Assembly (NCBI GenBank): GCA_951406725.2
Contig: OX597830.1
Coordinates: 8,122,001-8,186,000 of the forward strand
Length of the DNA stretch: 64,000 nt
Reading direction: 5' to 3'
From: Octopus vulgaris
Lineage: Eukaryota
The notes under the pieces were generated by a model, which ran no database searches, had not been told where the DNA came from, and was given only the letters and a program-made list of their open reading frames with translations. A program made the translations under genes and the position numbers. Of the stretch, positions 6,004-47,502 are shown one piece after another (positions within the stretch are counted from its first letter, which is position 1; the number at the start of each line of letters is the position of its first letter).

Positions 6004-6017
6004 AATATATATATGTT

Positions 6018-6143
<126 letters not shown>

Positions 6144-6175
6144 TATTCAGAGAGCGAGAGAAAGAAAGAGAAAGA

Positions 6176-6855: not shown

Positions 6856-6919
<64 letters not shown>

Positions 6920-7321: not shown

Positions 7322-7385
<64 letters not shown>

Positions 7386-7868: not shown

Positions 7869-9412
<1,544 letters not shown>

Positions 9413-17749: not shown

Positions 17750-17960
17750 ACTCCACTGGCAATACATCAATTACCGTTACATAATACAGGAGGGTTTTCT
17801 GCCGCACCTTGTATTTTCCTGCAGTACCTTGTACTTAAAACACATCATAGTGCGTTAATAGCCTAAAATCATTTCTTCAGCTCTGAGTAGAATCAGTATC
17901 CACTATTTTCGCTTCATAAGACTTCTCGTTCAAAGCGCACGAAATTTCCAAGAACCTAAT
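17750..17960 (-). pseudogene. Decayed N-terminal fragment resembling KRBA2/Ginger2-type integrase proteins
   Basis: One minus frame reads DFRLLTHYDVF*VQGT...TLLYYV, similar to the DYR...YDV..VQGT...YYV motif I recall from KRBA2-like proteins. It contains stops. Confidence 0.35.
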
Positions 17961-20347
17961 AAATTATCTAAGGGAAGTTACTCTTGTTTATTATTCTCTT
18001 GTTCTCTCCCCTTCTAACCAACACTATATCGTTTTCACTTACTGCCCTGCTGTTCCTCGCGGGGCAATTGCTATTATTAGGAGGAAGGACAAGACTCATA
18101 TGTTTAGGGGACGTTTTGCACGTTGGTGTAATGGTAGGTTGGCACTCCGGGAGAAACTTGGTTTTGTCACGAGAAAACCAGTAAGTGGGCAAGGGAGTTG
18201 CTAGAAGTAGCAGCCAGCTTAGCCGCCAGTCATACATACTGCCAATCAGAAACAGTAGCCAAATCTTCCTCAAATCACACACTACCAAATTAGACATAAC
18301 AGCCAAATCTCCTTCAGATCAGATCTTACTGTAGAGAAATAGCAGCCAAATCTTTCGTACACCCCAGTGTTTGATTTAATAAAAGGAACGAACATTGAGT
18401 GGTGTAGTCTGGGATAAACTGTGTCTGAAATTATTAAATGTTTGTTGCTGGATCATGCGTGACCTAGGGCTAAAAAATAACAGCAACAATACCAACATGA
18501 ACAAGAAGCATACCATCTATAATAATCCTTTCTACTCTAGGCACAAGGCCTGAAATTTGAGGGAGGGGGTAAGTCGATTACATCGACCCCAGTGTATAAC
18601 TGGTACTTAATTTATCGACCCCGTAAGGATGAAAGGCAAAATCGACCTCACTGGGGTCGATGCAGGCCTTGTGTCTACAATAGAAAGGATTGTTATTATT
18701 ATGAAGCTGTTGATGGTGATAAAGTAGTAGTTAATACCATGCAGCTTTTCCAAGTAGGAACATGTAGCCCACATGACAACAAGCTGCTACATGTGGCATA
18801 ACATTGTTAGTTTTACTGTAGAACAAACCCCTTCCCACCTTCTCACCCCTCCATCATCTACCTTATTATTCATGTCTCCTCCTCATGTGACCACCCCCGC
18901 CAACGATTTCCTGTTTATATAACCAAAAAAAAAAGTTTCATTTTGTACCATCTCTTCTGACATTACACAGTCTATCTTGGACTACATTATGTCATGTGTC
19001 CTTATTGGCTAGTACTTATTCTATCGCTCCCTTTTGCCGAACCGCTACGTTACGTGGATGTAAACACACCAGCATCGGTTGTCAAGCGAAGTTGGGGGGA
19101 CAAACACACACGTACATATACATATATACACATATATACGACGGGCTTCTTTCAGTTTCCGTCTACCAAATCCGCCCAGAAGGCTTTGGTCGGCCCGAGG
19201 CTATAGTAGAAGATACTTGCCCAAGGTGCCACACAGTGGGACTAAACCTGAGTGTAAACATGTGGTTGGTAAGCAAGCTACTTACCACACAGCCACTCCT
19301 GCGCCTATGAATTTTCTACGAATATGTGTTATATCATGTAGATTCCGAATATACAAAATTTGGGAGGGGGAGTGTTTTAGGAGGGGTGAAGGTGGGGGAT
19401 TTCGGAAATTTCACCGGAGTCCAATTCAATTCGTGTTAGCTTTCAAGAAAATGGATATTTTTTAATAAAATTCTCTACAAGTATACCTCGGATTATGTAG
19501 ATTCCGAGGATATAGGAATTTGGGAGCTGTTCCCCATCTGCGGGTGTTTCTGAACCAAGTCATCCATATTTGTTACATTTTCTCCGTTTTGTGCGTTTGT
19601 GCATCCATAGAATTCTACCACCCACGCCCATACACCAAACGCGCGTACATGTTTACCACTTTAGAGACATCAGATCTTATAACTATGCCTTTGATGGTCA
19701 CGACCTGTTGTGTTGTCGCTAAAGTGTCAAAGATTTTGATAAACTTGTCTACAGAAAGGGTGTAAAGAATTCTTATTTCAATAATTTATTCGCCCCACGT
19801 TGGGGAATCACGGTACTAGATTAAAGCAGTCCAGATATGACCATCCCATTTTGTATTCAGACATTAGTGTATCTAAGAAGACATTACTGTATTGTGTATT
19901 ATTGTTTAGCCCTAGGCCAGACCTGACCATACCAGCAGACATAGGTGTTCCAAATATGATCATCCCATCTTTTATCCAGGCATAGTCAATCTAAGACTAC
20001 AATATCTAATGCGTCCTTCTTTGCTACTGTATAACCCCAGGTCAATCTTTATCCATAGATCTAGATGTTCCATATGTGACCAACTCATCTTTTATTCAGA
20101 CTTTACACAGTGTATCTAGCACTATATTATCTTTAACCCTAGGTCAGTCCTGATCCAGAAGACCTAGGTGTTCCAGATATGACCATCTCATCTTTTATTC
20201 ATAGTGTATCTAGGATTACATTAATCTCATGTGTCCATCCTTGTTGCTGTTTAACCCCAGATCAGTCTTGTTCCAGATGTGACCATCCCGCCTCCACCCT
20301 CTCCATTGTGTTGGCTGAAAATCTTTTGGTCTTTTGTTTGGAAACAG

Positions 20348-20480
20348 GTTTATTGGAACAAAGATGGTTTCTTGAAGCTGAAGTTGGCAGACTTTGGTTT
20401 GGCTATGGAAATAACAGAAGACATTTATACGGTGTGTGGCACACCGACATATGTGGCACCAGAGATCCTAACACAAGAAG
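20348..20480 (+). pseudogene. Duplicated DCLK3-like kinase exon (DFG...APE) in the inverted arm
   Basis: Nucleotide-identical by eye to 45635-45767, with cag/gt splice sites kept. No upstream DCLK3 exons are present in this arm. Confidence 0.85.
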
Positions 20481-21380
20481 GTCAGTAATGCCCTTATATG
20501 GGATGAGGGTGGGGGTGGGGACGACAGGGTGGAATTGTTGTTTGCATTTAATACACACTGATGTGACACATGCTTAACAATTTACAAATACGAGTGTGTG
20601 TGTGTGTGAGCACACATTTACACACAGGCATGTGTTTATACATACATGCACACACAAAGTATGTATTTATACAAATATATACATCTACTTAAACACACAC
20701 ATACATCTATTTATACACAAACACATGCAGGCGTGTGTTTATACATATATACACATACATCTGTTTATAGATACAGAAGATATTTAGAGGAGCTGATGAA
20801 TAAAATATGATAAAAAGGAAAATTATATGCGCACACACATATGTATATGTGTATGCATATATATATATATATATGTATATACGTTCCACATTACACACAG
20901 CCTTGTCACACTGTGTCATGCTGAATCTCCCCAAGAACTACATTAAGAGTACACGTGTCTGTGGAGTGCTCAGCCACTTACATGCTAATTTCACAAGCAG
21001 GCTGTTCTGTTGATCGGATCAACTGGAACCCTCGTGGTCGTAACCAATGGAGTGCCACGACTGGTGAGGCTGATTGAGTTCCAGTGGGTGGCAGGATTGG
21101 GGAGAAAGGATTGGCTACATTAACGCATGGTTCCAGAAACAATACACAATAGATGGAAAGAGGCTTGAAACATCCGGCAAGTTTGGACAAGGGTGATGGA
21201 GAAGCTGTGGTAGTAACAGGAAGTGGAGGGGACACAGGGAGTATTGTAGTTTGTTGGTGGAACGAACAATGTGTGGACAATAGCATGTGTGTGTGTGTGT
21301 GTGAGAGAGAGAGGCTGTTCCTTCCTCAGACAGGTGAAAAGGGTTCTAAAAATGAATGGTTTCTCTTTGATCATTTGCAG

Positions 21381-21595
21381 ATGCTAAAGGTCTCATTCGA
21401 CATCTTCTAGTGGTCGACCGAAGACGGCGTTACACAGCTGTTGACGTACTCTGTCATCCGTGGATCCTTTGTGGTGGCAACATTACATGGATTCTCCATG
21501 GACAGGAGTTGGCCAACAACCAGAAAAGACTCCGTGAAAAGTTGAGCAGTGATGGAAGAAAATATTTGAATAATTTCAAAAGACAAAAAATATGA
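21381..21595 (+). pseudogene. Duplicated terminal DCLK3-like exon in the inverted arm
   Basis: Matches 43258-43472 except for a K-to-R change near the stop. The ttgcag acceptor is retained. Confidence 0.85.
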
Positions 21596-23138
21596 AAAAC
21601 AAAATAACCAAAATAACAAAAAAAAAACATTTTTGTCTTGTGTTTTTCTTTTAATATTTGATATGATCCAAGATGGCAAGCTAGCAGAATCGGTATGGCA
21701 CCGAGCGACATGCTCCGTGGCATTTCATCTGTTTTTTCATTTTGAGTTCAAATTCTGCCACAGTTGACTTTGCCTTTCACCTTTTCAGGGTTCATGAAAT
21801 AAATACCCATACAGCACTGACCTCCACCCCTGAAATTACTGGCCTTGTGACAGAATTTGAAACCATTATTATTATTATTATTAATGGTGGCAAGCTGGCA
21901 GAATCGTTAGCATGTTGGATAAAACGCTTAGCGGTATTTCGCCCATTGCTACATTTTGAGTTCAAATTCTGGGTTTGAACTCAGGATGTATAAGGCTACA
22001 ACAACATTCAGCAACTTATTTAGTTCTACCCTCTACCAACGTCTAACAATCTATTACTACTACTACTAATAATAATAATAAATGGTTTCTGGTTTAGTCA
22101 CAGAGACAACAATTTCAAAAGGAGGGATTTAGTTGATTCCGTTGACCCCAGTATATGACTGGTACTTCATTCTATCAACTCTAAAAAGTGAGGTTAATCG
22201 TGATGGGATTTGAATTCAGAATGTAAAACGTAGGAACAAATACCACAAGGTATATATTTCTGATGCTCAAACAATTCTGCCAGCTCATAATAATAATAGT
22301 AATAATCATAATCCTTTCTCATTTTAGCACAAGCCAGCAATTTTTATGGTTGGAGAAGTTGATTACATTGACCCCCCCACCTCCAGTACTCAACTTGTAC
22401 GTATCTTATTGACCCTTATTGAATGAGAGGTAAAGTCGACCTCAGCAGCATTTCAGCTCAGAACATAATCAGGTATGACCAAAAGCAAAATGGTGCCAAC
22501 CATTCTGTCTAGTACAGTAAGAATTCTGCTAGCTTGCCATTATTTTAATACCATTTTATTCTTCCATGTTTCCATGGATTGGACAGATGTTCTACAACAC
22601 AACCCTTCACCATTTGAAGTTCAACCACCTTGAGGGATACCTTTTTTTTCCACTTCTTTCCTGGTCCCTCTCCATGTCCCTCTCTTGCAGATTTCATCTG
22701 TTTAAATCACGTAGCTTTTCTTTTACCAAACAACCATGCTAAATGCTTAGAGGTATTTCTCCCTTTGATTCAGGGATGTATGCAGCCCCATCTCCTCCCC
22801 TAAGCACTACATCCGACATCACCCATTCCTAGTTTTTCTCTTTCAGCTCGTTTCAATATCACAGAGAAAATATAATAAAAAAATAAATTCATTTTATCAA
22901 ATCTATTAACAAAAATAATTCTATCCATTTCACAAAAAATGTCAAACTGTGAGTGTAAAAGATTTTCATTTCTTTTGTTTGGTGAAGAGATACATTTTAT
23001 GAGGTTGCACAAATCTGTATTTTAAATTAAAAAACAAAAATTGCCCTGAAAATCCTGTGAAAACAAACCCCTGTACCCAATCCCTTATTTGTAAGGACAA
23101 TTAAAATTCATACCATTATATTTATCATTCTTTAAATT

Positions 23139-23326
23139 CTATAAACGACTCGTGAGGCACTCTGCATGCCCTACTAGGGATAGTGGAACAGTTCGATAAA
23201 TCCATCTCTCTTTCGGATCAAGATGATTCAGAAAATTACCAGACGAACGGATCTCATCCCTGGTGAAAGGTAAAAACAATTCTTCATACTCTTCTTCGTT
23301 TGGCTTCTCAGGGTAGAGGTAGTCAC
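23139..23326 (-). CDS. NUDT19: NUDT19-like acyl-CoA diphosphatase, exon 3 (terminal, ends SRL-stop)
   Basis: ttgcag acceptor at 23327-23329. The phase-1 join gives LP-GDYLYP, the conserved NUDT19 LPGDxLY motif. The C-terminal SRL is a canonical PTS1. Confidence 0.85.
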
Positions 23327-24889
23327 CTGCAAGAATAAATTGTAACTGAAGACCTGAGTTCAAACACAACTAAAGTTTAGCTGGACTTCACCTTTTTTTG
23401 TTTTTTAATTAGTGACACCAGTTTTAAAGAAAGTGTTATTTTAAAACAAGAAATTGTTGCAGTGAAATATTGCAATTATTTTGATGTTGTGCAGTGGTAC
23501 TGCAAAGAGATCATTGCAGTCTAGGGTATACAGGTTCAATCCTAGGGCATGATAGTGAAGACAGGATAATCATCTTATTAAAGTTGTCTAAATTCTAATG
23601 AAAGCCGTCAGTAGTCTGTGAGACAACCAGTCCCTGTGTCTGTGTGTATAGATCATCATCATCATCATCATCATCATTTAACGTCCATTGTTCATGCTGG
23701 CATGGGTTGGACGGTTTGACCAGGGGTGGCAAGCTGGAAGGCTGCACTAGTCCCCAGTCTGCTTTGACCTGGTTCCTACAGCTGGATGCCCTTTCTAGTG
23801 CCAACAACTCTGAGAGTGTAATGGGTGCTTTTATGCGCCACTGGCACAGGTGCCATTTGCTTGACACCAGTATCTGCCACATCTGTGATTTTGCTCAGCT
23901 GGATGGGTCTTCTTCCCATTGATGACATAATGCCAAAGGTCTCGGTCATTGCCTCCATGACTTTCAACAATCGAAAGGATCTTTTCATGTGACCCTAGTA
24001 CCATCCACTTTGCCTCTGTGAGGTGCAATCCTCAAAAGGTGCTTTTTATGTGCTACTGGCATGGGTGCCAGTTATGTGACACCAGCACCAGGCATGACTA
24101 CGATTTCACTTGGCATCCGTTTTCCATGCTGGCATGGATCAGACGGTCTGATAGGAATCTTGCAGTCTGGGTCACATCAAGTACATTCATATGTAAAGTG
24201 GTGTCTCGCTAAAGATCTTGATTCTGGAGCAGTCATGTTGTTACTTGCCCACTTCATTTAGGGAATATATACGTATTTTACACTACGTAACACTGCGCAA
24301 TTCCTGAAGTAGATCCAAAGGAAATGTACCCCAACTATGGATAACATCAGGTAGCCCAAACTGTAGCAGTGCTTTACTCAACACATCAGCATAGTACCTC
24401 TGGATCATTGGGCGACATGCTGTGCTTGAGTCAAGTACATCAACCTATTTAGTCAAGTACATCAATATCAAAATCAAATCAAACCACAATCAAATGGAAA
24501 TTGTAGTCGTGGCTGATGCCAGCACCAACTGACTGGCTCCTCGTGTCAGTGGCACATAAAAAGCACCATCCGAATGTGGCCAATGCAAGCACCACCTTGA
24601 CTGACTCCCGTGCTGGTGGCACGTAAAAAGCAACCACTACACTCTCGGAGTGGTTGGCATTAGGAAGGGCATCCAGCTGTAGAAACACTGCCAGATCAGA
24701 CTGGAGCCTGGTACAGCCTCCTGGCTTCCCAGACCCCAGTTGAACCGTCCAAACCATGCCAGCATGGAAAACGGACGTTAAACGATGATGATGATAATAT
24801 ATATCTACACATTTTTTACATGTATATATATTTTTTATACATTAAAATCTAAGGTTTTATCTATTTATTTGAATCATTCTCTCCGTCTC

Positions 24890-24950
<61 letters not shown>

Positions 24951-25689
24951 ATATGCATATATATATAATTAATAAAAAATGGAGAAAAAAGACAAGAAAC
25001 AAACAATACGAAGACATGGTAGATGCAAAGAATTAATAAGACACTCAGGGAAGGAAAGAAATGGTGTTTATGTTTCGAGCAAAACTCTTCTTCGGAAAGA
25101 GGAGACGGAGGAAAGCCCAAGAGAAAAGAAAGACAGAGGAAATTAATCACCAGCAATCCACATGTAGCTACATTTTGGAATATATATATATATGTGTGTA
25201 TATATATAAATAAGCATGTATAAAGTATAAGTGTATGTATAAAACATTGTATATATAAGAGGTAAGTTACAGCGTTTAGACAGTACAATCTTCTTTCATC
25301 CAAGCAAGATATTTAATCACAGACAGAGCATAATGACTCAGCAAATAGTTCTTAATTACTAATTAAGTTTCATCAATTCATTTTCACCGTAATAATAATA
25401 ATTATTACATATAAAACAATTCGTCTAGTAAAACAGACACAACCTAATTAGGAATTAAGGTCTTTTATTATGACATTAAATACGATAGCCATTGACGGTC
25501 ATTTACGTATACACACACACAAACACATACACCAGGGAGCTCAGAATCATCGTTGCTATCACGAAAGAACAGCATTGACGGTTTGACACATTCAAAGACA
25601 GTGATGTAAAGGGAATAACTCTATAGAACTAACATTGTCGGTCCATTTGAAATGACCAACAGCAGGTCACAGACATACACATATATATA

Positions 25690-26257
25690 TTGGGTTGTCC
25701 GGAAAGTTTGTGCTGATTTATAGTAGCTTACCTTTCGACTTATTTTAGAACATGGTTGAGTCCATAAAATAGGATTTGACTACACCTCCATTTAGAGCAC
25801 AGTTTAAGCTATCTTTTCACGGAAGAAGATTTATGTTCCTATTACCTGTGTTAATTATGTAACCCTTTAAAATGAAAGATAAGAAAGTTCATTTTCGGCA
25901 CTTGATACTTTAGGAAACAGACAAAAATTGCTGCAGCTCGGCTGGGATGTGTTACCCCACCCTCCATATTCACCAAATATTGCTCCTTTGGATTTCCACT
26001 TATTCAGGTCTCTGCAGAATAGTCTTAATGGTAAAAATTTCACTTCCTTGAATGACGTAAAAAAAGATACCTTGATGAATTCTTTGCCATGAAACTACAT
26101 CAATTCTGGGAAGAGGGTATTTTCAAGTTAAAGGAAAGATGGAGACGCATTGTGCAACAAAATGGTTCATATTTGGTTGATTAAAAATGTAATGGCAAGT
26201 ATTTATTGACTTTTTTCTTTCCTTTAAAAATCGGCATGAACTTTCCGGACAACCTAA
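25690..26257 (+). mobile_element. Internally deleted mariner element
   Basis: TIRs TTGGGTTGTCCGGAAAGTT and AACTTTCCGGACAACCTAA flanked by TA. Retains the MKDKKVHFRH start and GWDVLPHPPYSPNIAPLDFHLF. Confidence 0.85.
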
Positions 26258-26321
26258 TACATATGAATAAATGTAAGGACGCGAGCTAGGCAAGTCGATA
26301 TAAAAAAAATGTACATATGTA

Positions 26322-26551
26322 TTGATTAGTGCATAATTATTGCAGCTTTTTTTCAACAAAAACAATAATATTTAACAAAAAATCTTTAAATGATGGTCTG
26401 ACCGTCTGCCAAGCAAATGGGAAGCAGTAATTGAAGTAGATGGTGAATATGCTCCGGAATAATCCTTTAAAGATGTTTTTGTTACATTGCTGTTATTGTT
26501 TTTGTGGAATAAAATGTTGAAAAAAACCGCAATAATTATGTACCATCCCAA
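26322..26551 (+). mobile_element. Short mariner-derived MITE
   Basis: Imperfect TIRs (TTGATTAGTGCATAATTATTGC and GCAATAATTATGTACCATCCCAA) and a transposase C-terminus DRLPSKWEAVIEVDGEY. Confidence 0.65.
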
Positions 26552-27065
26552 TACATATATATACATAAAAGCCCGGTTTACATAGAATAGAAATGATATG
26601 AGGGAGTAAAGAAGTTGAATAAGAGTTTCACAAATCAAATAGCTGTTTCTGGGGTTTTGGTGATCCAAAATAATGATTGTAAATTGATTTCATCATCGGA
26701 TAATACCAGCCTCCATCTTCAGGGAAGAATTTTACATTTGAGACATTGACAAAATGTATTTTAAAGATGGAATGATTTTGGACAACCAAGCCCCAAGAAA
26801 CAGCTGTTGGGCTCATAAAACTCTTACTCAACCCCTTTAAATCTGGATATCATTGCTATTCTGTGTGAGTCGGACTTCTTTTATATGTATATATATGTAC
26901 ATTTTTTGTATTAAATGCGTTTAATATTCTGTGTAAATCGACTTACCTAACTTGCTTGTCCTTACATTTCCTCCTCTACATAGTCAAGTTCAAATCTCTT
27001 AAGCATTACAAAGTGTATTCAGTACCGAGAATACCTGTCTAATCTATCTCTCTCTCTCTCTCTCA

Positions 27066-27105
<40 letters not shown>

Positions 27106-27110
<5 letters not shown>

Positions 27111-27833
27111 AAGAGATTAAACTATGAGAGTAAGAAACACAGGTGTCTTGGTATAAGGGAGATACATGACTACCTGTGTTTTAGAAGATAAGATGGGAGC
27201 CAGAGCCAGCCCTCAAGGGGTACATGTGGTGGAATTAATTAGCTCTGTGCAAAAAAATGCTGCAATATTTTCAGTGGGTTGCACTCACCCCACACAATTG
27301 CTGACCTTGTGCTAAAATTTGAAACCAATGTTTTAAGGGTCATAGCACAACCTGTCACTGGTGCAGGAATATTCCATGTCAATACCGTTTTGCTTGGCTG
27401 TAGTAAAGGTCTGCTGTAGACATTGTTATATAATCTGTCATCAGCTTTAGAAGATGTTTGTAAAACTCTTATTCATAATCACCCATGGGTGTGTGGTGAA
27501 GAAGCTCTCTTCCCAGCCATGTGGTTCCGGGTTTAGTCCCACTGTGTTGCACCTTGGGCGAGGGTCTTCAACAATATATATATATGGAGGCGCATGGCTT
27601 AGTGGTTAGGGTGTCAGCACTATGATTGTTAGATTGTGGTTTCAGTTCCTGGACTGGGTGACATGTTGTGTTCTTGAGCAAAACACTTCATTTCACATTG
27701 CTCCAGTCCACTCAGCTGGCAAAAATGAGTAACGCTGCGATGGACTGGCGTCCAGGCCAGCTGGGGGACACATACGCCATAGAAACCAGGAAACCGGGCC
27801 CATGAGCCTGGCTAGGCTTTAAAAGGGCACATT

Positions 27834-27915
<82 letters not shown>

Positions 27916-28637
27916 AATGTGCCCTTTTAAAGCCTAGCCAGGCTCGTGGGCCCAGTTTCCCGGTTTCTATGGCGTATGTGTCCCCAGCTGGACGCCAGTC
28001 CATCGCAGTGTTACTCATTTTTGCCAGCTGAGTGGACTGGAGCAACGTGAAATGAAGTGTTTTGCTCAAGAACACAACGTGTCACCCAGTCCAGGAACTG
28101 AAACCACAATCTAACAATCATAGTGCTGACACCCTAACCACTAAGCCATGCGCCTCCATATATATATATTGTTGAAGACCCTCGCCCAAGGTGCAACACA
28201 GTGGGACTAAACCCGGAACCACATGGCTGGGAAGAGAGCTTCTTCACCACACACCCATGGGTGATTATGAATAAGAGTTTTACAAACATCTTCTAAAGCT
28301 GATGACAGATTATATAACAATGTCTACAGCAGACCTTTACTACAGCCAAGCAAAACGGTATTGACATGGAATATTCCTGCACCAGTGACAGGTTGTGCTA
28401 TGACCCTTAAAACATTGATTTCAAATTTTAGCACAAGGTCAGCAATTGTGTGGGGTGAGTGCAACCCACTGAAAATATTGCAGCATTTTTTTGCACAGAG
28501 CTAATTAATTCCACCACATGTACCCCTTGAGGGCTGGCTCTGGCTCCCATCTTATCTTCTAAAACACAGGTAGTCATGTATCTCCCTTATACCAAGACAC
28601 CTGTGTTTCTTACTCTCATAGTTTAATCTCTTAACAT
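27106..28637. repeat. 1.5-kb near-perfect palindrome centred on (TA)n in NUDT19 intron 2
   Basis: About 27106-27838 is the reverse complement of about 27911-28637, with roughly 7 substitutions and one small indel. Confidence 0.93.
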
Positions 28638-28983
28638 CTGGTATGAAGCCTTGCTCCCCCTCCTGCCACTTTGTCAAGGGGGCTTTTTTAAAATCTTTTT
28701 CATTTTCCTGCTCTTTTCCTCTATTGCAAGCGACTTTGTGACCTCAGTAGTACCAATGATGCAAAGACAGCACCCAGTACACACTGTGGAGTGGTTGGTG
28801 TTAAGAAGGGTATGCCGAAGATGGTATGGAAACTCAAGGAAGCCCTGCAACTAACCAAATCCTGTCATACTGAAACCTTATTGTTGCAACCAAGGGTGAA
28901 CCAGGAACTGAGATGAGAAGAAGAAATGTTCTCAACAGGAAAATAAATAATATATAAATATAAAAAAAAAAAAAAGAAATTAC

Positions 28984-29176
28984 CTGGTAAAAAAACCAAT
29001 ACCCCATCTTTGCAATTGATTTTCACAGGTAAGAATCTCTTGGGTTGTAAATAGGGAATCGAGGTGACCGAATTGTGAAGGTCTTCCCAGCTGGAGGAGT
29101 TCAGGTGGTAGATCTCCCATAATTGCGGAGGGAAAATATGAAGTTTCTGTGAGAAATATTCCATTGGTGTTAACCA
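28984..29176 (-). CDS. NUDT19: NUDT19-like, exon 2
   Basis: gtccag acceptor and gtaat donor, 193 nt. Encodes WLTP...IFPPQLWEI...RFLP...DGVLVFLP, matching the NUDT19 W.SP...PPQ.YE...LP pattern. Confidence 0.87.
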
Positions 29177-29594
29177 CTGGACAGGAATATAAAAGAAGAT
29201 GATACACATTATATCAAAATTATATTAAAATTAAGGATAAAATCTATATTAGATTTTATCAGGGAGTTAGCATGCAATCAACCAGTTAAGGTTAAATTAA
29301 TCAATTTATAAATATCTATCAAGGGCAACAGAATATGTACACAAGTTGCCAATGTCTAAAATCTACCTTAAAATATCACCATAAAGTATAAACGCATGCT
29401 GAACATGTGTAAATAAATGAAACAGATTCATGAAATGGTTCAATTACACATCAATTGCTTTCAAGATTAGGGGGTAATCCCTTTTTCTGTCATCAATGTA
29501 ATATAACCCAATCAATGCATATCAACACAAACAAAATACACACCCATGAAGCAGAACGGCTCCACAGCACAAATACACCGTTTGAACTTATATA

Positions 29595-29805
29595 CTCTTT
29601 TATTAGTTTCAGTCATTTGACTGCGGCCATGCTGGAGCACCGCTTTTAATCGAGCAACTCGACCCCGGGACTTATTCTTTTGTAAGCCCAGTACTTATTC
29701 TATCGGTCTCTTTTGCCGAACTGCTAAGTAACGGAGACGTAAACACACCATCATCGGTTGTCAAGCAATGCTAGGAGGACAAACACAGACACACAAACAC
29801 ACACA

Positions 29806-29840
<35 letters not shown>

Positions 29841-30002
29841 GACAGGCTTCTTTCAGTTTCCGTCTACCAAATCCACTCACAAGGCTTTGGTCGGCCCGAG
29901 GCTATAGTAGAAGACATTTGCCCAAGGTGCCACGCAGTGGGACTGAACCCGGAACCATGTGGTTGGTAAACAAGCTACTTACCACACAGCCACTCCTGCG
30001 CC
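29595..30002 (-). mobile_element. Full-length SINE family A inserted into an older foldback element
   Basis: Reverse complement of the 17023-17416 family, interrupting an inverted repeat (about 29400-29594 vs 30135-30285). Confidence 0.8.
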
Positions 30003-35069: not shown

Positions 35070-35295
35070 TTTTCTGCTGCACCTGGGATGAATGTGGGAG
35101 GTTTTTCTGCCTCACCTTGCATCAATGTGGGAGGTTCTTATGCCGCACCTTGCATCAATGAAGCAGGGGTTTCTGCCCCACCTTCCAACAAAGACCCTAT
35201 GTAAAAGGGAGGCTTTTCTGCCGCACCTCACATCAATGTGGGAGGGTTTTCTGCCACACCTCGCATCATTGAAGCAGGTTTTTCTGCTGCACATT
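35070..35295 (+). repeat. Degenerate minisatellite, about 33-bp unit GGAGGGTTTTCTGCCGCACCTTGCATCAATGTG
   Basis: About 6-7 copies, visible as the repeating WEVFLPHLASM peptide in ORF 35092-35313. Confidence 0.8.
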
Positions 35296-35907
35296 GCATT
35301 TATTCATATATAAATATGTGTGTGTGTTTATGTATGTATGTATTTTTATATACGTACACATACATAGCTATGACTAATGCTATGAAGTTTACCTGTTATT
35401 TGTCATTTCAAATGGACTACATTTGTTGTGTAGAGTTACTCCCCTTACATCACGGTCTTCGGTAAAAATGAATTGAAACTTAATTAGTAATTAAGAACTA
35501 TTTGCTGAGTCATTATGCTCTGTCTGTGATTAAATATCTTGCTTGGATGAAAGAAGATTGTACTGTCTAAACGCTGTAACTTACCTCTTATATATGCAGT
35601 ATTTTATACATACACTTATACTTTATACATGCTTATTTATATATACACACATATACATATATTCCAAAATGTAGCTACATGTGGATTGCTGGCGATTAAT
35701 TTCCTCTGTCTTCCTTTTCTCTTGGGCTTTCCTCTGTCTCCCGTTTCTGAATAGGAGCTTTGCACGAAACGTAAAACACCCTTTCTTTCCTTACCTGAGC
35801 AATTTATTAATACTTTGCATGTACCCCGTCCTCGTATTGCTGTTTGTTCTTGTCTTTTTTCTTCATTTTTTTAAAAATAATTATATATATATGTATGCAT
35901 ATATTCA

Positions 35908-35939
<32 letters not shown>

Positions 35940-36935
35940 GATAGAGAGAAAGAGAGAAAGAGAGAGAGAGAATGATTCAAATGAATAGATAAAACTTTGG
36001 ATTTTAATGTATAAAAATATATATACGTGTAAAAAGATATGTGTAGATTTATATATATCATCATTATCATCGTTTAACGTCTGCTTTCCATGCTAGCATG
36101 GGTTGGACGATTTGACTGAGAGCTGGCGAACCAGATGGCTGCACCAGACTCCAATCTTGATCTGGCAGAGTTTCTACAGCTGGATGTCCTTCCTAACGCC
36201 AACCACTCCGTGAGTGTAGTGGGTGCTTTTTACATGCTACCAGCACAGGTGCTAGGGGAGGCTGGCAGCGGCCACAATTGGTTGGTGCTTTTTACCGGCA
36301 CAGAAGCCAGTCAAGGTGGTGCTAGCATCGACCACGTTCGGATGGTGCTTTTTACATGCCACCGGCACAGGTATCATAGCTACTGTTTCCATTTGATATT
36401 TATTTCGATGTTTATGTATATATATATATATATATATATATTGTACATTAAAACCCAAGTTTTTATCTGTTTATTTGAATCATTGTCTCCATACCTGCTC
36501 ACTGCTCACCTGGATTCTCCTTGTAGCCATTCTTTAAGCTGCAGACTTGGTCCTCAGTAAAGTTATCAGTCTTTAAATAAAACCATTTGAGCATTACTAA
36601 GTGTTATTTTTAATCTAAGATTCTCTCAATCTCATCTGTTGATTCTATATATATATAAACTATGAGAACCAGAACCAGTTTCGTGTCTTATGCTTATCAA
36701 ACTTCCAAGGTCTCAGATTTCCATAGAGAGAGAATTTTTGCTAAATCTTGGGGACACCATTTCTGTCACTGGTACTCCTAGTTTATTATATAATATTGTA
36801 ATACAAGTCTTTGTTTCATTGTGATCTTAATATTAGCATAAATTTTATTATACAAACCTCCTGTGCATTTTTACCATATTTTCCTTTCTTAAATATCTAC
36901 AACCACGTGTAAACAAGAACTGCCACCTTTATGTG

Positions 36936-36968
<33 letters not shown>

Positions 36969-39900
36969 AATCATAATAATAATAATAATTTGAGGGAAAA
37001 CTTACAGGGAAAAATTCAATTTAGAAATACTAAATCAAATTTCACAAAATATAATATATATATAAAAACTAGAAAAAAAACACCTTTTATCAATTCAAAA
37101 TTATTATATACAAACTGCCGTTTATATAGAGAGAGATTTATTGTTATTTTATATTTAATATTTCTATTATATGTATTGATAAAAGGTGGTTTGTTCTACT
37201 TTATATATATATATAGATAGATAGATAGATATACACAATCATATAACACTCATGTTCCATGCTGGCAGAAGTGTATAACTTTATACACATCCACATATAA
37301 GTGATTATGTGAGTATACAGGGATAAAGTTATCTAGGTGGGTACCATGGTAGTTCTGAGATAGACTCCAGGTTACGGCTAACCTCATCAAGTAGTGATAA
37401 GAATCAAAGATTGCTTAGTGTTAGCAATCATGCTATAATTTTTCTGATGGATAACTCTGGGTTCACTTCTCTGGATTATGAAATTTTTCAGGAGTGTAGA
37501 TTCCAAACAGTTATATAGAATATGGAGAATGGTATATCATCAATTTTTTCTTTTTAATTTTACAGTTGATCTAATGGCAAAATTAATTGCTTACAATAAT
37601 GACCAAATAATTATGCTGACCAACTGTAAAATTAGTAGAGAAATTTGAAACGGTGCCAGTCTCCATAATCTTTGTAATTGTTTGAAATATATATTCTTTT
37701 ACTTGTTTCAGTCATTTGACTGCGACCATGCTAGAGCACTGCCATTAGTCGAACTAATCGACACCAGGACTTATATTTTGTAAGCCAGGGACTTATTCTA
37801 TTGGTCTCATTTGCTGAACCACTAAGTTATGGGGATGTAAACACATCAACATCAGTTGTCAAGCAATGGTAGGGGGATGAACACACACACACAAATATAT
37901 ATGTCTTCATATATATATATAAGTATCATCATCATCATCATCATCATCGTTTAACGTCCGTTTTCCGCGCTAGCACGGGTTGGACGGTTTCGACCGGGGT
38001 CTGGGGAGCTAGGGACTGCCCCAGGCTCCAGTCTGGTCTGGCAGTGTTTCTACAGCTGGATGCCCTTCCTAACGCCAACCACTCCGCGAGTGTAGTGGGT
38101 GCTTTTTACGTGCCACCTGCACAGGTGCCAGAGGGGTCTGGCATCGGCCACGTTCGGATGGTGCTTTTTATGTGGGGGGGGTGCAGGAATATAGGGGAGC
38201 ACCAGTGGGGAGGGGTGGTTCAGAGAAATGATGACAGGTTGTAGGCAAGTAGAACGTAGGATATCAAGAGAGGGGTAATGCATGGTAAAATAGCGTATTG
38301 AAGAGGGGGGTTCGAAGAGTAGACACCTATAATGGTGGTGGGAGAAACGACATCCGGTATAGATGGAGCAAAAATAGAGATATCCGGTATTGGTGGTGGG
38401 GGTGGGCAGGGCGGGTGCACCGCGATACACGAAGGTCGATCATAGACGAGAGGAGAAATGAACAAATCAGACAAAATAGATAGAAATCAGATAAAATAGT
38501 TAGATAGATAGAGAAACATGTATGATCAGTCTAGGAGTGAAAATAGGCATTCAAACTTATCTGTGCACGGGATTATATAGCTGGTAGATGAGGTAGATGA
38601 ATGAGAGAGAGAGAGAGAGAGCACATGTTGTGGGTTGCCTTCTAAGTAAAAAGTTGTCCGGAAGAAGGATTTTTGGAGAAGGCAGAAGTGTATTAAAGGA
38701 AAAAGGTTTCAAGATGGCGAATCGAAGGTCGATCATATAACGAGAGAAGAAATGAACAAATCAGACAAAATATAATAATAATAATAATAATAACAATAAT
38801 AATGAATGACAACAAAAGAATAGGACCTAGATATTAGATAAATAGAAGAATTTATATGTATAGTTTATACAACAATCAATAATAGCCAATGAGAATGCAT
38901 CGTGGCCCTTAGCTCCAGCATTTGAAAATCTGAGTCCTGTTATGACAACTTACTGATTGTCCTACACTATACATACAAACACACACATATATATGATAGG
39001 CTTCTTTCAGTTTCCATCTACCAAATCCACTCACAAATCTTTGGTCGACCTGAGGCTATAATAGAAGACACTTGCTAAGGTTCCACACAGTGGAACTGAA
39101 CCCAGAACTATAAGGTTGGGAAGCAAGCTTCTTACCACACAGCCACTCCTATGTAATATTTCAGGCTAATGAGTATAAGTCAATTAGTATGCTGATGTGT
39201 TGAGTAAAGCACTGCTACAGTTTGGGCTACCTGATGTCATCCACAATTGGGGTACATTTCCTTTGGATCTACTTCAGGAATTCTGCAGTGTTAGTTAGTG
39301 TAAAAGACGTATATATTCCCTAAATGAAGTGGGCAAGTAACAACATGACTGCCCCAGAATCAAGATCTTTAGCGAGACACCACTTCACGTATGGATGTAC
39401 TTGATGTGACCCAGACTGCAAGATTGATGCAACATAATATGAGGCACAGCACCTCACCCATAAAGGGTGGATGCAGGATGGGTCGAAACAATCGTCATAC
39501 AAAATTAGTAGTTATACCAATTCCATCTTCTGTTTACTTAATTGATTATTATAGATACACACACACACACACACACATAGCAAATAAGAAAATGGAGGAG
39601 CATGTTTTTTAATAATACTTGTATTCTTATTTTTATATGCATTGAATAATATGCTATATGTGTGTATGTTATTATAATAATTATCATTATAATAAATAAA
39701 TAACTTATCAATTTTAATGTCCTAAAGTTGATGAACCAACTATTGTTCCCCTCCATTTTCGTATTTGCAATATAAATTAATGGTAAAATATCTCTTTACC
39801 TTCACTCATTTAATACACTAGGTAAGTTAATTGCAATGCAATAGAAAAACACTTGTGTATTAATAATTGGGTATTCTACCAACAGTATATTGGATGGATA

Positions 39901-42000
39901 TTATCCCTTAATGGGTTGGATCCACAACCCCTAACGTTCTTGGAGTATACATATATATATATAAATAAATAGGTATTAATCCCAACTGCAACCTGCCAAA
40001 TGAGCTTAATGCATGAAGACTGATCAATCAATTTGTACAGCAACAGACAGTGTTCTGAGTCATGTCCCTCCTTAAGAAACAAACTAACAACAGCCAAAAT
40101 ATACGTAATTTGCAACACAGCTCCATAAAACACTGGATGCAGCTCTCCAGATTACCAATTCCTATCAAACCGTCCAACCCATGCCAGCATGGAAAACGGA
40201 TGCCAAGTGAAATCGTAGTGAAGGCTGGTGCTGGTGTCACATAACTGGCACCCATGCCAGTAGCACATAAAAAGCACCTTTTGAGGATTGCACCTCACAG
40301 AGGCAAAGTGGATGGTGCTAGTGGCACATGAAAAGATCCTTTCGATTGTTGGGCCTCATGGAAGCAATGACCGAGACCTTTGGCATTATGTCATGCTTGG
40401 GAAGAACACCCAACAAGCCAAGTAAAAAATTGCAGCTGTGGCAGATACTGGTGTCGTGCAAATGGCACCCATGCCAGTGGCACGTAAGAGCACCCATTAC
40501 ACTCTCAGAGTGGTTGGCACTAGAAAGGGCATCCAGCTGTAGGAACCAGGTCAAAGCAGACTGGGGTCTAGTGTAGCCTTCTAGCTTGCCAGCCCTGGTC
40601 AAACCGTCCAACCCATGCCAGCATGAACAATGGACGTTAAATGATGATGATGATGATGATCTATACACACAGACACAGGGACTGGTTGTCTCACAGACTA
40701 CTGACGGCTTTCATTAGAATTTAGACAACTTTAATAAGATGATTATCCTGTCTTCACTATCATGCCCTAAGATTGACCCTGTGTACCCTAGACTGCAATG
40801 ATCTCTTTGCAGTACCACTGCATAACATCAAAATAATTGCAATATTTCACTGCAACAATTTCTTGTTTTAAAATAACACTTTCTTTAAAACTGGTGTCAC
40901 TAATTAAAAAACAAAAAAAGGTGTGAATTCCATTTAAACTTTAGTTGTGTTTGAACTCAGGTCCTCAGTTAATAAATAAGGGATTGGGAATAGGGGTTTG
41001 TTTTCACAGGATTTTCAGGGCAATTTTTGTTTTTTAATTTAAAATACAGATTTGTGCAACCTCATAAAATGTATCTCTTCACCAGACAAAAGAAATGAAA
41101 ATCTTTTACACTCACAGTTTGACATTTTTTTTGAAATGGATAGAATTATTTTTGTTAATAGATTTGATAAAATGAATTTATTTTTTTATTATATTTTCTC
41201 TGTGATATTGAAATGAGCTGAAAGAGAAAAACTAGGAATGGGTGATGTCGGATGTAGTGCTTAAGGGAGGAGATGGGGCTGCATACATCCCTGAATCAAA
41301 GGGAGAAATACCTCTAAGCATTTCGCATGGTTGTTTGGTAAAAGAAAAGCTACGTGATTTAAACAGATGAAATCTGCAAGAGAGGGACATGGAGAGGGAC
41401 CAAGGAAGAAGTGGAAAAAGAAGGTATCCCTCAAGGTGGTTGAACTTCAAATGGTGAAGGGTTGTGTTGGAGAACATCTGTCCAATCCATGGAAACATAG
41501 AAGAATAAAATGGTATTAAAATAATGGCAAGCTGGCAGAATTCTTACTGTACTAGACAGAATGGTTGGCACCATTTCTTTTGGTCATACCTGTTTATGTT
41601 CTGAGCTGAAATTCTGCTGAGGTCGACTTAACCTCTCATTCAATAAGGGTCAATAAGATACGTACAAGTTGAGTACTGGAGGGGGGGGTCAATGTAATCG
41701 ACTTCTCCACCCATAAAAATTGCTGGCTTGTGCTAAAATTAGGAAGAATTATGATTATTATTATTATTATTATTATTATTATGAGCTGGCAGAATTGTTT
41801 GAGCATCAGAAATATATACCTTGTGGTATTTGTTCCTACGTTTTACATTCTGAATTCAAATCCCATCACAATTAACCTTACTTTTTAGAGTCGATAGAAT
41901 GAAGTACCAGTCATATACTGGAGTCAACGGAATCAACTAAATCCCTCCTTTTGAAATTGTTGGCTCTGTGACTAAACCAGAAACCATTTATTATTATTAT

Positions 42001-42038
<38 letters not shown>

Positions 42039-42688
42039 ATAGATTGTTAGACGTTGGTAGAGGGTAGAACTAAATAAGTTGCTGAATGTTGTTGTAGCCT
42101 TATACATCCTGAGTCCAATCCCAGTTAAGGTCAGCTTTACTTTTTATCCTTCCCAGTACTTTGGGCCACTTAAGTATTGGAATGGAGAAGAGAGAGCAAA
42201 AAATTTTAATAGTAATTTCAAATTTTTGCCACAAGGGTAGCTTGTAGCAGGTGGGGATGAGTTGGGTACATCGACCCCTGTACTTGTTTCATCAGCCCTG
42301 AAAGGATGAAAGGCAAAGTTGACCTTGTTTCATCAGCCCTGAAAGGATGAAAGGCAAAGTTGACCTCAGTGGAAGTTGAACTCAGAACGTAGTGATTGGC
42401 GAAATACCGCTAAGCGTTTCATCCAGGATGCTAACGATTCTGCTAGCTAATTGCCTTAACACTAATAATAATAATGGTTTCAAATTTTGCCACAAGGGCA
42501 GCAATTTTGGGGGAGGGGGTGAGTCAATTACCTCAACCCCAGTGTGTAACTGGTACTAAATTTGTCGACCCCGAAAGGATGAAAGGCAAAGTCGCTCACA
42601 GAAGAATTTGAACTCAGAACGTAGCAATGGCCAAAATGCCACTAAGCATTTCATCCAGAATGCTAACAATTTTGCCAGCTTGCCACCT

Positions 42689-42722
<34 letters not shown>

Positions 42723-42961
42723 CAATAATGATAATAATAATAATAACAATAATGATAATAATAATAATAACAATAATGATAATAATAATAATAATAACAA
42801 TAATGATAATAATAATAATAATAATAATAATGATAATAATAATAATAATAATAAATAATAATAATAATGATAATAATAAGCACATACCCAAGGCACACAG
42901 AGCTGCACTCGGTAGTGAAGTGAAAGCACGCTATAAAAATAAAACTACTGAATAATAAAAA

Positions 42962-42993
<32 letters not shown>

Positions 42994-43257
42994 GTTTCAA
43001 ATTCTGTCACAAGGCCAGTAATTTCAGGGGTGGAGGTCAGTGCTGTATGGGTATTTATTTCATGAACCCCGAAAAGGTGAAAGGCAAAGTCAACTGTGGC
43101 AGAATTTGAACTCAAAATGAAAAAGACAGATGAAATGCCACGGAGCATGTCACCCGGTGCCATACCGATTCTGCTAGCTTGCCATCTTGGATCATATCAA
43201 ATATTAAAAGAAAAACACAAGACAAAATGGTTTTTGTTATTTTGGTTATTTTGTTTT

Positions 43258-43472
43258 TCATATTTTTTGTTTTTTGAAATTATTCAAATATTTTCTTCCA
43301 TCACTGCTCAACTTTTCACGGAGTCTTTTCTGGTTGTTGGCCAACTCCTGTCCATGGAGAATCCATGTAATGTTGCCACCACAAAGGATCCACGGATGAC
43401 AGAGTACGTCAACAGCTGTGTAACGCCGTCTTCGGTCGACCACTAGAAGATGTCGAATGAGACCTTTAGCAT
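43258..43472 (-). CDS. DCLK3: DCLK3-like kinase, terminal exon
   Basis: ttgcag acceptor. The phase-1 join gives ISK-YAKGLIRHLLVVDRRRRYTAVDVLCHPWI (kinase subdomain XI), with the stop at 43258. Confidence 0.88.
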
Positions 43473-44506
43473 CTGCAAATGATCAAAGAGAAACCATTCA
43501 GTTTTAGAACCCTTTTCACCTGTCTGAGGAAGGAACAGCCTCTCTCTCTCACACACACACACACACTACAATACTAACATGTTCAAATCTACTCTACTCC
43601 CTGTGTCCCCTCCACTTCCTGTTACTACCACAGCTTCTCCATCACCCTTGTCCAAACTTGCCGGATGTTTCAAGCCTCTTTCCATCTATTGTGTATTGTT
43701 TCTGGAACCATGCGTTAATGTAGCTAATCCTTTCTCCCCAATCCTTGCCACCCACTGGAACTCAATCAGCCTCACCAGTCGTGGCACTCCATTGGTTACG
43801 ACCACGAGGGTTCCAGTTGATCCAATCAACAGAACAGCCTGCTTGTGAAATTAACGTGCAAATGGCTGAGCACTCCACAGACACGAGTACTCTTAACATA
43901 GTTCTCGAGGAGATTCAGCGTGACACAGAGTGTGACAAGGCTGGCCCTTTAAAATACAGGCACAAAAGAAACAGGAAGAAAGAATGAGAAAATTTATGGT
44001 GAAAGAGTACAGCAGGGTTCACCAACCCTACGCCTGCCGGAGCCTCGTGGAGCTTTAGATGTTTTCACTGAATAAACACTCACAATGCCTGATCTGGGAA
44101 TCAAAACTGTGATCCTACGACTGCGAGTCCATTGCCCTAACCACCGGGCCATTGTGCCTCCACAGCGTCACTAATATGGTGAGGATGAAGCAAAGGTCAC
44201 AGGTTAGAAACACTATCAATTTCTTCCCAGACGCATATAAAGAAATAATTTCCATTATCACACACATCCTTTGCATTATACAGACATCATTGCATAATTT
44301 TTGTATAAAATGATTATGGATTAAATGTTTATTATATGAGATCATTAAGACCAATATCACACACATTTAAGTACAAGCATCAGCACTCGTGTAAATACCT
44401 GGACAAGCTCTGGGGTCAATCTAATCAATAATTAACACCTTCCCACTTAATTCCTGCATTTGTACCAATGTAATGAACAAGAGTTGATTATACAACTGCT
44501 ACTCAC

Positions 44507-44674
44507 ATTTCGAAATTTGATCCCAATACGGGGTTAGGAATTCGTATTCTCCTGACTTGATTTTTTCGAAAAGATCCGACTGTCGTCTGTCATGGCTATG
44601 AAATGGTGGGAAGCCACACAGGAGTATAAAACAAATCACACCGGTTGCCCACATGTCCACTTCAAGCCCATAGC
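44507..44674 (-). CDS. DCLK3: DCLK3-like kinase exon (subdomains IX-X)
   Basis: ttag acceptor and gtgagt donor, 168 nt. Encodes GYGLEVDMWATGVICFILLCGFPPF...YEFLTPYWDQISK. Confidence 0.9.
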
Positions 44675-45028
44675 CTAAAGAACATTTACAATAATAAAAA
44701 AAAAAGAACATCATTTATCATCATTGTTTTAGAATTCAGATTGTCAAATGTAACACTCATTTATTTACACATGGCTATGTGGTAAGAAGCTTGCTTCCCA
44801 ACCACATGGTTCTGGGTTCAGTCCCACTGCGTGGCACCTTGGGCAAGTGTCTTCTACTATAGCCTCAGACTGACTAAAGCATTGTGAGTGGATTTGGTAG
44901 ATGGAAACTGAAAGAAGCTCATCTTATATACATATACACGTGTGTGTGTGTGTGTGTGTTTGCATGTTCTGTGTTTGTCCCCACCACCATCGCTTGATGG
45001 AAACTGAAAGAAGCCCATCATGTGTGTG

Positions 45029-45059
<31 letters not shown>

Positions 45060-45634
45060 CTTTGTGTCTGTGTTTATCTCCCAACATCACTTGACAACCG
45101 ATGTTGGTGTGTTTGCATCCCTGTAACTTAACAGTTTGGCAAAAGAGACCAATAGAATAAGTACTAGGCTTACAAAGAATAAGTACTGTGTGTGCATATA
45201 TGTATAAACACATGTCAGTGTGTGTGTATATATAAACACAGATGTATGTGTATATATGTATAAATACACGCCTGTGTATGCATGTATGTATAAACACATG
45301 CCTGTGTGTGTGTATGTATAAATACAGATGTATGTATATACATGTATAAATACACACCTGTGTGCATGTATGTATAAATACATGCCTCTGTGTGTGTGTG
45401 TGTGTAAGTAGATGTATGTGTATATTTGTATAAATACACGCTTGTGTGTTTGTGCATGTATGTATAAATACATACTTTGTGTGTGTATTGTATGTATAAA
45501 CAGATGCCTGTGTGTATATGTGTGTATGTACACACACACACAGAGTTTACGTCAGTGTGTATTAAATGCAAACAACAATTCCACCCTGTCGTCCCCACCC
45601 CCTCACCCTCATCCCATATAAGGGCATTACTGAC

Positions 45635-45767
45635 CTTCTTGTGTTAGGATCTCTGGTGCCACATATGTCGGTGTGCCACACACCGTATAAATGTCTTCTG
45701 TTATTTCCATAGCCAAACCAAAGTCTGCCAACTTCAGCTTCAAGAAACCATCTTTGTTCCAATAAAC
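45635..45767 (-). CDS. DCLK3: DCLK3-like kinase exon (subdomains VII-VIII)
   Basis: aaacag acceptor and gtcagt donor, 133 nt. Encodes LKLADFGLA...[15 protein letters not shown]. Confidence 0.92.
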
Positions 45768-47502
45768 CTGTTTCCAAACAAAAGACCAAAAGATTTTCAG
45801 CCAACACAATGGAGAGGGTGGAGGCGGGATGGTCACATCTGGAACAAGACTGATCTGGGGTTAAACAGCAACAAGGATGGACACATGAGATTAATGTAAT
45901 CCTAGATACACTATGAATGATGTCTGAATAAAAGATGAGGTGGTCATATCTGGAACACCCAGGTCTTCTGGATCAGGACTGACCTAGGGTTAAAGATAAT
46001 ATAGTGCTAGATACACTGTGTAAAGTCTGAATAAAAGATGAGTTGGTCACATATGGAACATCTAGATCTATGGATAAAGATTGACCTGGGGTTATACAGT
46101 AACAAAGAGGGACACATTAGATATTGTAGTCTTAGATTGACTATGCCTGGATAAAAGATGGGATGATCATATTTGGAACACCTATGTCTGCTGGTATGGT
46201 CAGGTCTGGCCTAGGGCTAAACAATAATACACAATACAGTAATGTCTTCTTAGATACACTAATGTCTGAATACAAAATGGGATGGTCATATCTGGACTGC
46301 TTTAATCAAGTAGATCAGGGCTGACCTATGGCTAAACAATAAGGACATATGACATAATGTAGTCCAAAACAGACTGTGTAATATCAGAAGAGATGGCCAT
46401 GTCTGGAACCCCTAGATGTGCTAGATGAGGCACAGTGTACCTAGGACTACAGTAACAACTCAGTGAATTAACAAAATGAGCTGAAACTTATTTTGTTTTA
46501 TAAACAAGAAATTGTTGGAGGGGGTGGTCACATGAGGAGGAGACATGAATAATAAGGTAGATGATGGAGGGGTGAGAAGGTGGGAAGGGGTTTGTTCTAC
46601 AGTAAAACTAACAATGTTATGACACATGTAGCAGCTTGTTGTTGTCATGTGGGCTACATGTTCCTACTTGGAAAAGCTGCATGATATTAACTACTACTTT
46701 ATCACCATCAACAGCTTCATAATAATAACAATCCTTTCTATTGTAGACACAAGGACTGCATCGACCCCAGTGCATAACTGGTACTTAATTTATCGGCTCC
46801 GAAAGGATGAAAGGCAAAGTTGACCTCAGTGGAATTTGAACTCAGAACACAAAGATAGATGAAATACTGCTGAGCATTTTGTCCAGTGTACTAACGATTC
46901 TGTCAGCTCGCTACCTTAATAATAACAACAATAATAACGATGATGATGTTGATGATGTTGATGATGATAATGATTGTGATGATGATGATGATGATGATAA
47001 TGAAAATAATTATAATAATGATTTCAAATTTTGACACAAGGCCAGCAATTTCAGGGGAGGGGGAGGTAAGTTGATTATATCAACCCCAGTGTTAAACTGG
47101 TACTTTATTGACCCCGAAAGGATGAAAGCCAAAGTCGACCCCAGCAGCATTTGAACTCAGAACATTAAGACAAAGAAAAAGCCACAAAGCATTTTGCTTG
47201 ACATGCAAATGATTGTGCCAGCTCATCACCTTAATAATAATAACCCTTCCTTCTAAAGGCACAAGGCCTGAAATTTGGGGAGAGGGGACTAGTCAATTAC
47301 ATTGACCCCAGTGTTTCACTGGTACTTAATTTATCAACTCCGAAAAGATGAAAGACAAAGTTGACCTCGGTGGAATTTGAACTCAGAACGTAGCAGAAGA
47401 TGAAATACCACTAAGCATTTTGCCCAGCATGCTAACAATTCTGCCTGCTTGCTGCCCCAATAATAACGATAATAATGATAATGATAATAATAATAATAAC
47501 AA

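Follow-up and report, generated by a model that had tools for sequence, protein, structure and literature searches.

Inverted copies of a shared NUDT19–DCLK3 3' region with reciprocal exon losses in Octopus vulgaris: probable trace of a small inversion

The genes NUDT19 and DCLK3 lie next to each other in a 64,000-nucleotide stretch of the Octopus vulgaris genome (assembly GCA_951406725.2, contig OX597830.1, positions 8,122,001 to 8,186,000; hereafter the window, whose own coordinates are used throughout), and the region holding their 3' ends is present there twice, as inverted copies. The layout is A–C'–B–C–D. Arm C' (18649–26273) carries the working 3' end of NUDT19 together with relics of DCLK3, and arm C (35297–46772) carries the working 3' exons of DCLK3 together with a relic of NUDT19 intron 2 and 3' untranslated region (UTR). 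Between them, segment B (26274–35296), presumed to be an inverted single-copy piece, holds the NUDT19 promoter and exons 1 and 2. The arms are colinear, with 95.8% identity over 4,950 aligned bases in a global alignment. Self-BLAST returns a single long inverted match, whose pieces run in strict order from 18649/46772 to 25667/35391. This bears out the layout put forward in the original prediction, which had been made from the letters alone. Its outer limits (18649 and 46772) stand, whilst its inner ones (about 25670 and 35385) have been refined to 26273 and 35297, because a 13-bp word found at 26261 and 35297 occurs at only these two places in the window. The refined ends lie beyond an insert confined to C' (25688–26259) with terminal inverted repeats of about 21 bp, which we take to be mariner-like from its TA-flanked layout.

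The arms span 7.6 kb (C') and 11.5 kb (C), of which about 5 kb is aligned. When only ungapped blocks of at least 40 bp are counted and shorter ones dropped, 210 of the 4,950 columns are mismatched (4.2%), and there are large arm-specific insertions and deletions in addition. A 401-bp arm probe found a full-length match at two of 40 scored places in the genome, namely the two arms; the remaining 38 matches were to repeat and no longer than 88 bp. The idea that the inner arm is merely a dispersed repeat holds only in part: with an inner-arm probe the partner arm was the sole full-length match (91% over 386 bp), the others among 46 matches reaching at most 87% over shorter pieces. The window contains no N. 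The duplication is probably real and young, and it is very likely that the structure belongs to the genome rather than to its assembly.

NUDT19 is read from the minus strand. The coding part of exon 1 (32379–33215, its only genome match), exon 2 (28984–29176, with exact splice sites) and the coding part of exon 3 (23139–23326, in C') splice in frame into a protein of 405 residues followed by a stop, 99% identical to an O. sinensis model in a homologue search. A genome search with the Pfam NUDIX domain returned six other matches and missed this gene. Contigs from four of 24 read runs were compared with the window over 20890–24860 (3,971 bases): X1 from organism A, X4 from organism B, X6 from organism C and X10, which is RNA-like; organisms B and C are represented by one run each. 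X10 is taken for RNA by guess only, none of the listed runs being recorded as such. Two of its contigs, at depths of about 35–36, cover a NUDT19 3' UTR of at least 1.25 kb (21894–23138). Its 2,278-nt contig matches 22380–23329, carries C' alleles and departs from the genome exactly at the exon-3 acceptor, the 1,328 nt upstream falling outside the compared stretch. By its length this part would fit NUDT19 exons 1 and 2 plus about 300 nt of 5' UTR. Exon 3 in C' is used by this spliced contig of the RNA-like run.

Three further features touch this gene. The public model P0162 (509 residues) splices from a GT within NUDT19 exon 3 to 10611 (stretch 10309–10611), spanning all of C'. NUDT19 intron 2 contains a palindrome (27106–28637) whose 733-bp arms are identical in 720 of 733 columns (98%) about a centre of (TA)36 at 27839–27910, and whose outer part is found full-length in the genome only at its two arms. 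It would give a long hairpin in the NUDT19 pre-mRNA, and may have arisen from a second fold-back event or be an artefact of the reads. In the O. bimaculoides NUDT19 model P0168 the end of exon 1 is repeated, probably through a fault of assembly or annotation.

DCLK3 likewise lies on the minus strand. Its large exon (50420–52258, with the DCX domain and the kinase N-lobe) and catalytic-loop exon (47906–48052) are in segment D; the working DFG-motif exon (45635–45767), a 168-nt kinase exon (GYGLEVDMW..., 44507–44674) and the working last exon (43258–43472) are in arm C. From 50420 through 43258 these exons form one open frame with exact splice sites. The product is a DCX-kinase, and the closest named molluscan matches in a homologue search are DCLK3. 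In the listed exons of both genes, public O. vulgaris models agree with the window at 100%. The 5'-most DCLK3 exons of model P0163 (residues 1–133) have no match within it. On the plus strand of C' lie two relics, both with intact splice sites: that of the DFG-motif exon (VYWN..., 20348–20480), identical to C, and that of the last exon (21381–21595), which has one substitution (K to R) relative both to C and to the O. sinensis model. In a 653-nt contig of X10 the match begins right at the last-exon acceptor (21381), another 409 nt lie outside the compared stretch, and the end comes 27 nt past the stop codon. The contig shows one difference; the arms differ at one site there, and this is as expected from arm C or from an ancestral allele. 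Most or all of the 168-nt exon is missing from the O. bimaculoides DCLK3 models P0123, P0169 and P0170, again probably a fault of assembly or annotation. A tandem array with periods of 20, 41 and 62 bp occupies 57007–57419 in a DCLK3 5' intron.

Each arm has lost an exon of one gene. It had been claimed that C' retains NUDT19 exon 3 and lacks the DCLK3 exon 44507–44674, whilst C retains three DCLK3 exons and lacks NUDT19 exon 3; alignment confirms both halves. Arm C has no counterpart of 23093–23342, a 250-bp deletion that takes with it the acceptor, the entire coding part of exon 3 and a further 46 nt of UTR. Its joint lies at 40971..40972; TTGTAA stands at both ends in C', and AT replaces G at the joint. 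At 20776..20897 of C', about 1.4 kb of C (43944–45342) is absent, including the 168-nt exon. Each of the two lost exons, like NUDT19 exon 1, has a single match in the genome. Both arms are needed at once, as had been proposed, because each gene, read in its own direction, can use only the arm that lies downstream of it. This need does not stem from the exon losses, however, since gene orientation required both arms from the flip onwards. Losses can hit only the unused half and are therefore reciprocal; they are decay, with reciprocity imposed by selection. A random 250-bp deletion covers exon 3 with a probability of about 0.7% (a post hoc figure, per deletion), and targeted removal of exon 3 is at most hinted at.

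The junctions are non-homologous. At J1 (A|C') a truncated repeat resembling a short interspersed nuclear element (SINE; 18519–18648, plus strand) ends, and within it 18581–18594 forms a 14-bp inverted repeat with the first 14 bp of C' (18649–18662). A second SINE-like repeat (46759–46918, plus strand) lies over the C|D edge, and its first 14 bp are those copied into C'. J1 thus joins the SINE of A to the start of the C|D-edge SINE at non-homologous internal positions with 2 bp (CA) shared, and ectopic SINE–SINE recombination is therefore ruled out as the cause. J1 may have been trimmed afterwards. At J2 (B|C, 35296/35297) a 33-bp minisatellite (35069–35292, plus strand) abuts the joint and is connected to intron 2 through a 3-bp microhomology, CAT. 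Microhomologies of 2–3 bp are too short to separate template switching from end joining or chance, and the sequence would fit both staggered breaks with end joining and a double template switch. The proposal that a staggered break or template switch lay at the root of the arrangement is supported by these non-homologous junctions and their short microhomology. That the two genes were once convergent is supported as well, as C' has the DCLK3 3' exons (plus strand) tail-to-tail with NUDT19 exon 3 (minus strand) and as organisms B and C look single-copy.

One unit of the J2 minisatellite occurs in A (17788–17815), on the same strand and 0.85 kb from J1; as a mark of an old A–B adjacency it was rejected on account of its strand. 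The family was found at three other loci among eight candidates scored. Looking for a remnant of a second B, or for a split element marking the old A–B adjacency, gave SINE matches only.

The ancestor would have been A–reversed B–C–D, with NUDT19 and DCLK3 convergent. Breaks or template switches at three places, namely 46772 in a DCLK3 intron, 35297 in NUDT19 intron 2 and a point upstream of NUDT19, could then have been repaired through microhomology to give A–C'–B–C–D, inverting some 9 kb with the 5' part of NUDT19, copying the junction once and turning the convergent pair into a tandem one. The stagger would cover both 3' ends, so that a full copy was left to each gene. The unused halves would then have decayed, the reciprocal losses being those that survived selection. 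The allele-like arms would stem from two haplotypes, either by repair on the homologue or by later exchange with uninverted chromosomes. It is probable that an inversion of about 9 kb with a one-sided inverted duplication uncoupled the convergent pair in this manner. The ancestral orientation of B in an outgroup is inferred here from the tail-to-tail layout within C'. NUDT19 and DCLK3 have adjacent accession numbers in O. bimaculoides and O. vulgaris, which does not give their strand, and none of 47 distant kinase loci on metagenome contigs, most of them too short to be informative, had a NUDT19 match.

The divergence between the arms is uneven: lowest in the relic exons, at 0–0.5%, it stands at about 2% in outer non-repeat DNA and at 6–10% in NUDT19 intron 2. 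Compared with C', organism C has 19 differences in 1,114 bases and organism B has 11 in 717. The difference between the arms is therefore about as large as that between alleles or between sister species, and we infer a young event that may have drawn on two haplotypes. O. vulgaris and O. sinensis are dated as having split 2.5 million years ago in the available part of a preprint (bioRxiv 10.1101/2023.05.16.540928). The rearrangement appears to postdate the radiation of the O. vulgaris group.

The relatives had been expected to carry a single copy, and organisms B and C indeed look single-copy, both in their contigs and in their flat depth. In organism C (X6) one unbroken contig (1,140 nt, depth 10) covers the two edges of the exon-3 deletion, the other seven listed pieces lying at 3.0–11.5. 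This speaks for a single copy, because a second arm bearing the deletion should break the contig, given how contig graphs branch. In organism B (X4) the contig is unbroken over the left deletion edge at depth 79, and the eight listed pieces lie at 40–91 with no doubled class. Organism A (X1) is different: among eight listed pieces, the three flanking ones are at 31.9–38.3 and the five over 22088–23411 at 9.3–13.1, and a contig breaks at 23381/2, an arm-diagnostic site. Contig depth is a rough measure and gives no copy number, and the flanks are about three times deeper than exon 3, unlike the half depth expected of a false haplotype duplication. The step favours extra flank copies lacking exon 3 in organism A only. 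GC bias as its source was ruled out (rho 0.38, p 0.35, eight pieces). Five exon-3 variants at 23260–23295 are common to organism C and one organism-B haplotype, which suggests polymorphism across species.

Several observations weigh against a young inversion with a real duplicate. Of 21 arm-diagnostic sites in 22531–23644, organism C agrees with C at 6 and with C' at 12–14, and carries a third allele at 1 (17 of its 19 differences being listed); such a mixture of C and C' alleles is also what a haplotype artefact would give. The relic exons have hardly diverged (1 of 350 bases, against 41 of 2,062 in non-repeat flank; Fisher p 0.024); the p value for this deficit becomes 0.14 when drift at the flank rate is confined to the relic branch, and 0.005 at the overall rate. 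The low zone of X1 extends over about 1.3 kb (22088–23411), as against the 250-bp deletion in the window, and 24156–24285 is deep in X1, though just 19% of its 31-mers are common to the window arms. The second arm in X1 is thus not that of the window and may carry a different and larger exon-3 deletion, and X1 may not be independent of the source of the window. The joint of the exon-3 deletion was not directly seen among the joints listed. Moreover, both breakpoints lie beyond the compared stretch.

One rival explanation is an assembly artefact, in which both haplotypes of a single-copy region were retained and joined in inverted order. The arms are allele-like, exons differing least and introns most, and a second near-perfect palindrome lies in B; fold-back reads can generate palindromic layouts, and the read comparison did not cover the junctions. 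Heterozygosity in the species is also appreciable, at 1.22% in the available part of the report (bioRxiv 10.1101/2023.05.16.540928). Yet either haplotype would then lack a functional copy of one of the two conserved genes, neither arrangement of a simple inversion has the B|C adjacency, the sequence runs without a gap, and the depth step and contig break seen in X1 are absent from X4 and X6. An artefact is distinctly unlikely on these grounds. Alternatively, the duplication could be real and older or built in several steps: it would predate the split from organisms B and C, of each of which one animal was examined, and have failed to persist or to become fixed there; or else an inverted duplication of the whole of B and C would have been followed by loss of the second B, with conversion keeping the outer part alike. 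A count of 21 sites at which the arms differ, as against 11 differences between organism C and C' (about 860 bp), the climb from about 2% outside to 6–10% inside, and the many arm-specific inserts and gaps would agree with such a history. It is nevertheless unlikely. Organism C differs from C' by 3–4% in the inner intron also (6 of 138 and 4 of 130), and the gradient therefore follows background variability; nor was a second-B remnant found between 33250 and 39300.

It has also been suggested that the arms matter as RNA. The original prediction had pointed to complementary pre-mRNAs as a source of double-stranded RNA for ADAR editing, and a stronger version would have the arms kept for a regulatory RNA, DCLK3 read-through pairing with NUDT19 RNA or folding back. 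Within the duplicated region the NUDT19 3' UTR takes up no less than 1.25 kb, reaching at least to 21894, and about 0.6 kb of DCLK3 UTR would suffice for overlap (42680 in C pairs with 21894 in C'); model P0162 also splices across all of C'. Sense–antisense editing is known in some animals, but the enriched groups named in the available part of the source are ctenophore, sponge, nematode and sea squirt, and not octopus (PMC9989829). The convergent ancestor, however, already had such pairing, with 100% identity; the DCLK3 contig stops 27 nt past the stop codon, and the NUDT19 RNA contig has three differences in 950 nt, two of them common to DNA runs. Retention of the arms for RNA is very improbable, and the editing idea is not supported in the form put forward: one contig set has no majority-level editing cluster, the complementarity is ancestral and the read-through it needs was not seen. 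Contigs drop minority variants and show no strand, so that low-level editing is compatible with them. The one possibly new element would be a fold-back in read-through RNA of more than 20 kb. Judged by sequence, the 733-bp, 98% hairpin of intron 2 would be a more obvious ADAR substrate than the arms. ADAR-edited cis natural antisense pairs resemble the locus in the complementary 3' regions of neighbouring genes; unlike them, as far as the available text describes them, the octopus genes lie on one strand, and neither overlap of their mature RNAs nor editing was seen.

Returning to the inversion, the exon losses alter what a crossover between the arms does, not whether the arms are needed. In simulation, a crossover at 20000 deprives DCLK3 of its 168-nt exon, one at 23500 leaves exon 3 on the wrong strand for NUDT19, and one at 22700 leaves both genes whole and convergent once more. 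Taken in order along C', the three zones have 1,292, 2,148 and 1,972 aligned bp, and their longest identical stretches measure 313, 229 and 119 bp. Inter-arm crossover is thus predicted to be harmless only in the approximately 2.1 kb between the deletions, breaking NUDT19 further in and DCLK3 further out. A rather unlikely extension is that the locus is a young orientation switch, in which arms 9 kb apart flip NUDT19 to and fro, both orientations segregate, and the exon-3 relic is repeatedly removed by selection. If so, the 2.1-kb window would limit harmless flips and a convergent pair would have been caught during uncoupling; selection could be putting an end to interference, by antisense RNA or cryptic splicing, with the neural kinase DCLK3, and the exon-3 deletions would be of 250 bp in this genome and perhaps of about 1.3 kb, ending at 23381, in X1.

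The class of mechanism is already established. Within the available part of the study by Ranz et al. (2007, PMC1885836), inverted duplications accompany 17 of 29 inversions in the Drosophila melanogaster subgroup, in 12 at one breakpoint only, and do not exceed about 1.9 kb; inversions there also uncoupled five antisense gene pairs with overlapping 3' ends, all with inverted duplications. The octopus locus resembles these cases in that non-repetitive sequence, duplicated in inverted orientation, borders the inversion, with one breakpoint duplicated, and in decay through substitutions and deletions (PMC1885836). Here too the inverted duplication is non-repetitive, relatives look single-copy and the breakpoints are non-homologous. 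It differs, so far as that text goes, in a duplicate of about 5 kb aligned against at most about 1.9 kb, in arms identical at 96% against 88% (PMC1885836), in staggered breaks that are both intronic, so that coding exons of both genes were copied, and in an inverted segment of only about 9 kb, with arms near enough to recombine. Inversion O7 of D. subobscura is a second parallel. According to the available part of its description, the inverted duplications there are possibly footprints of template switching, with a micro-inversion or palindrome nearby, and repair is ascribed either to the homologue in trans or to template switching in break-induced replication (BIR) or its microhomology-mediated form (MMBIR) (PMC7584159). 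Involvement of the homologue would explain the allele-like arms of the octopus locus. O7 is large, by contrast, its breaks are intergenic, and the part of the homologue was shown from uninverted haplotypes, whilst in the octopus it is inferred (PMC7584159). A literature search, in which subscription papers were poorly covered, found nothing on the octopus NUDT19/DCLK3 locus or on a cephalopod inverted duplication at an inversion breakpoint.

The locus offers a clean and datable case of an inversion that cut within two genes yet spared both, and a within-genus test of what is gained or lost when convergent transcription is undone. There is also a practical caution, in that relic exons identical to their working counterparts mislead the mapping of reads, the design of probes and the calling of editing sites in DCLK3. 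Finally, the broken reading frames of segment A at 2366–3467, 8398–9328 and 10565–10963 are presumably remnants of mariner transposase-like, LINE-type (long interspersed nuclear element) and integrase-like sequences, respectively, to judge from their motifs.

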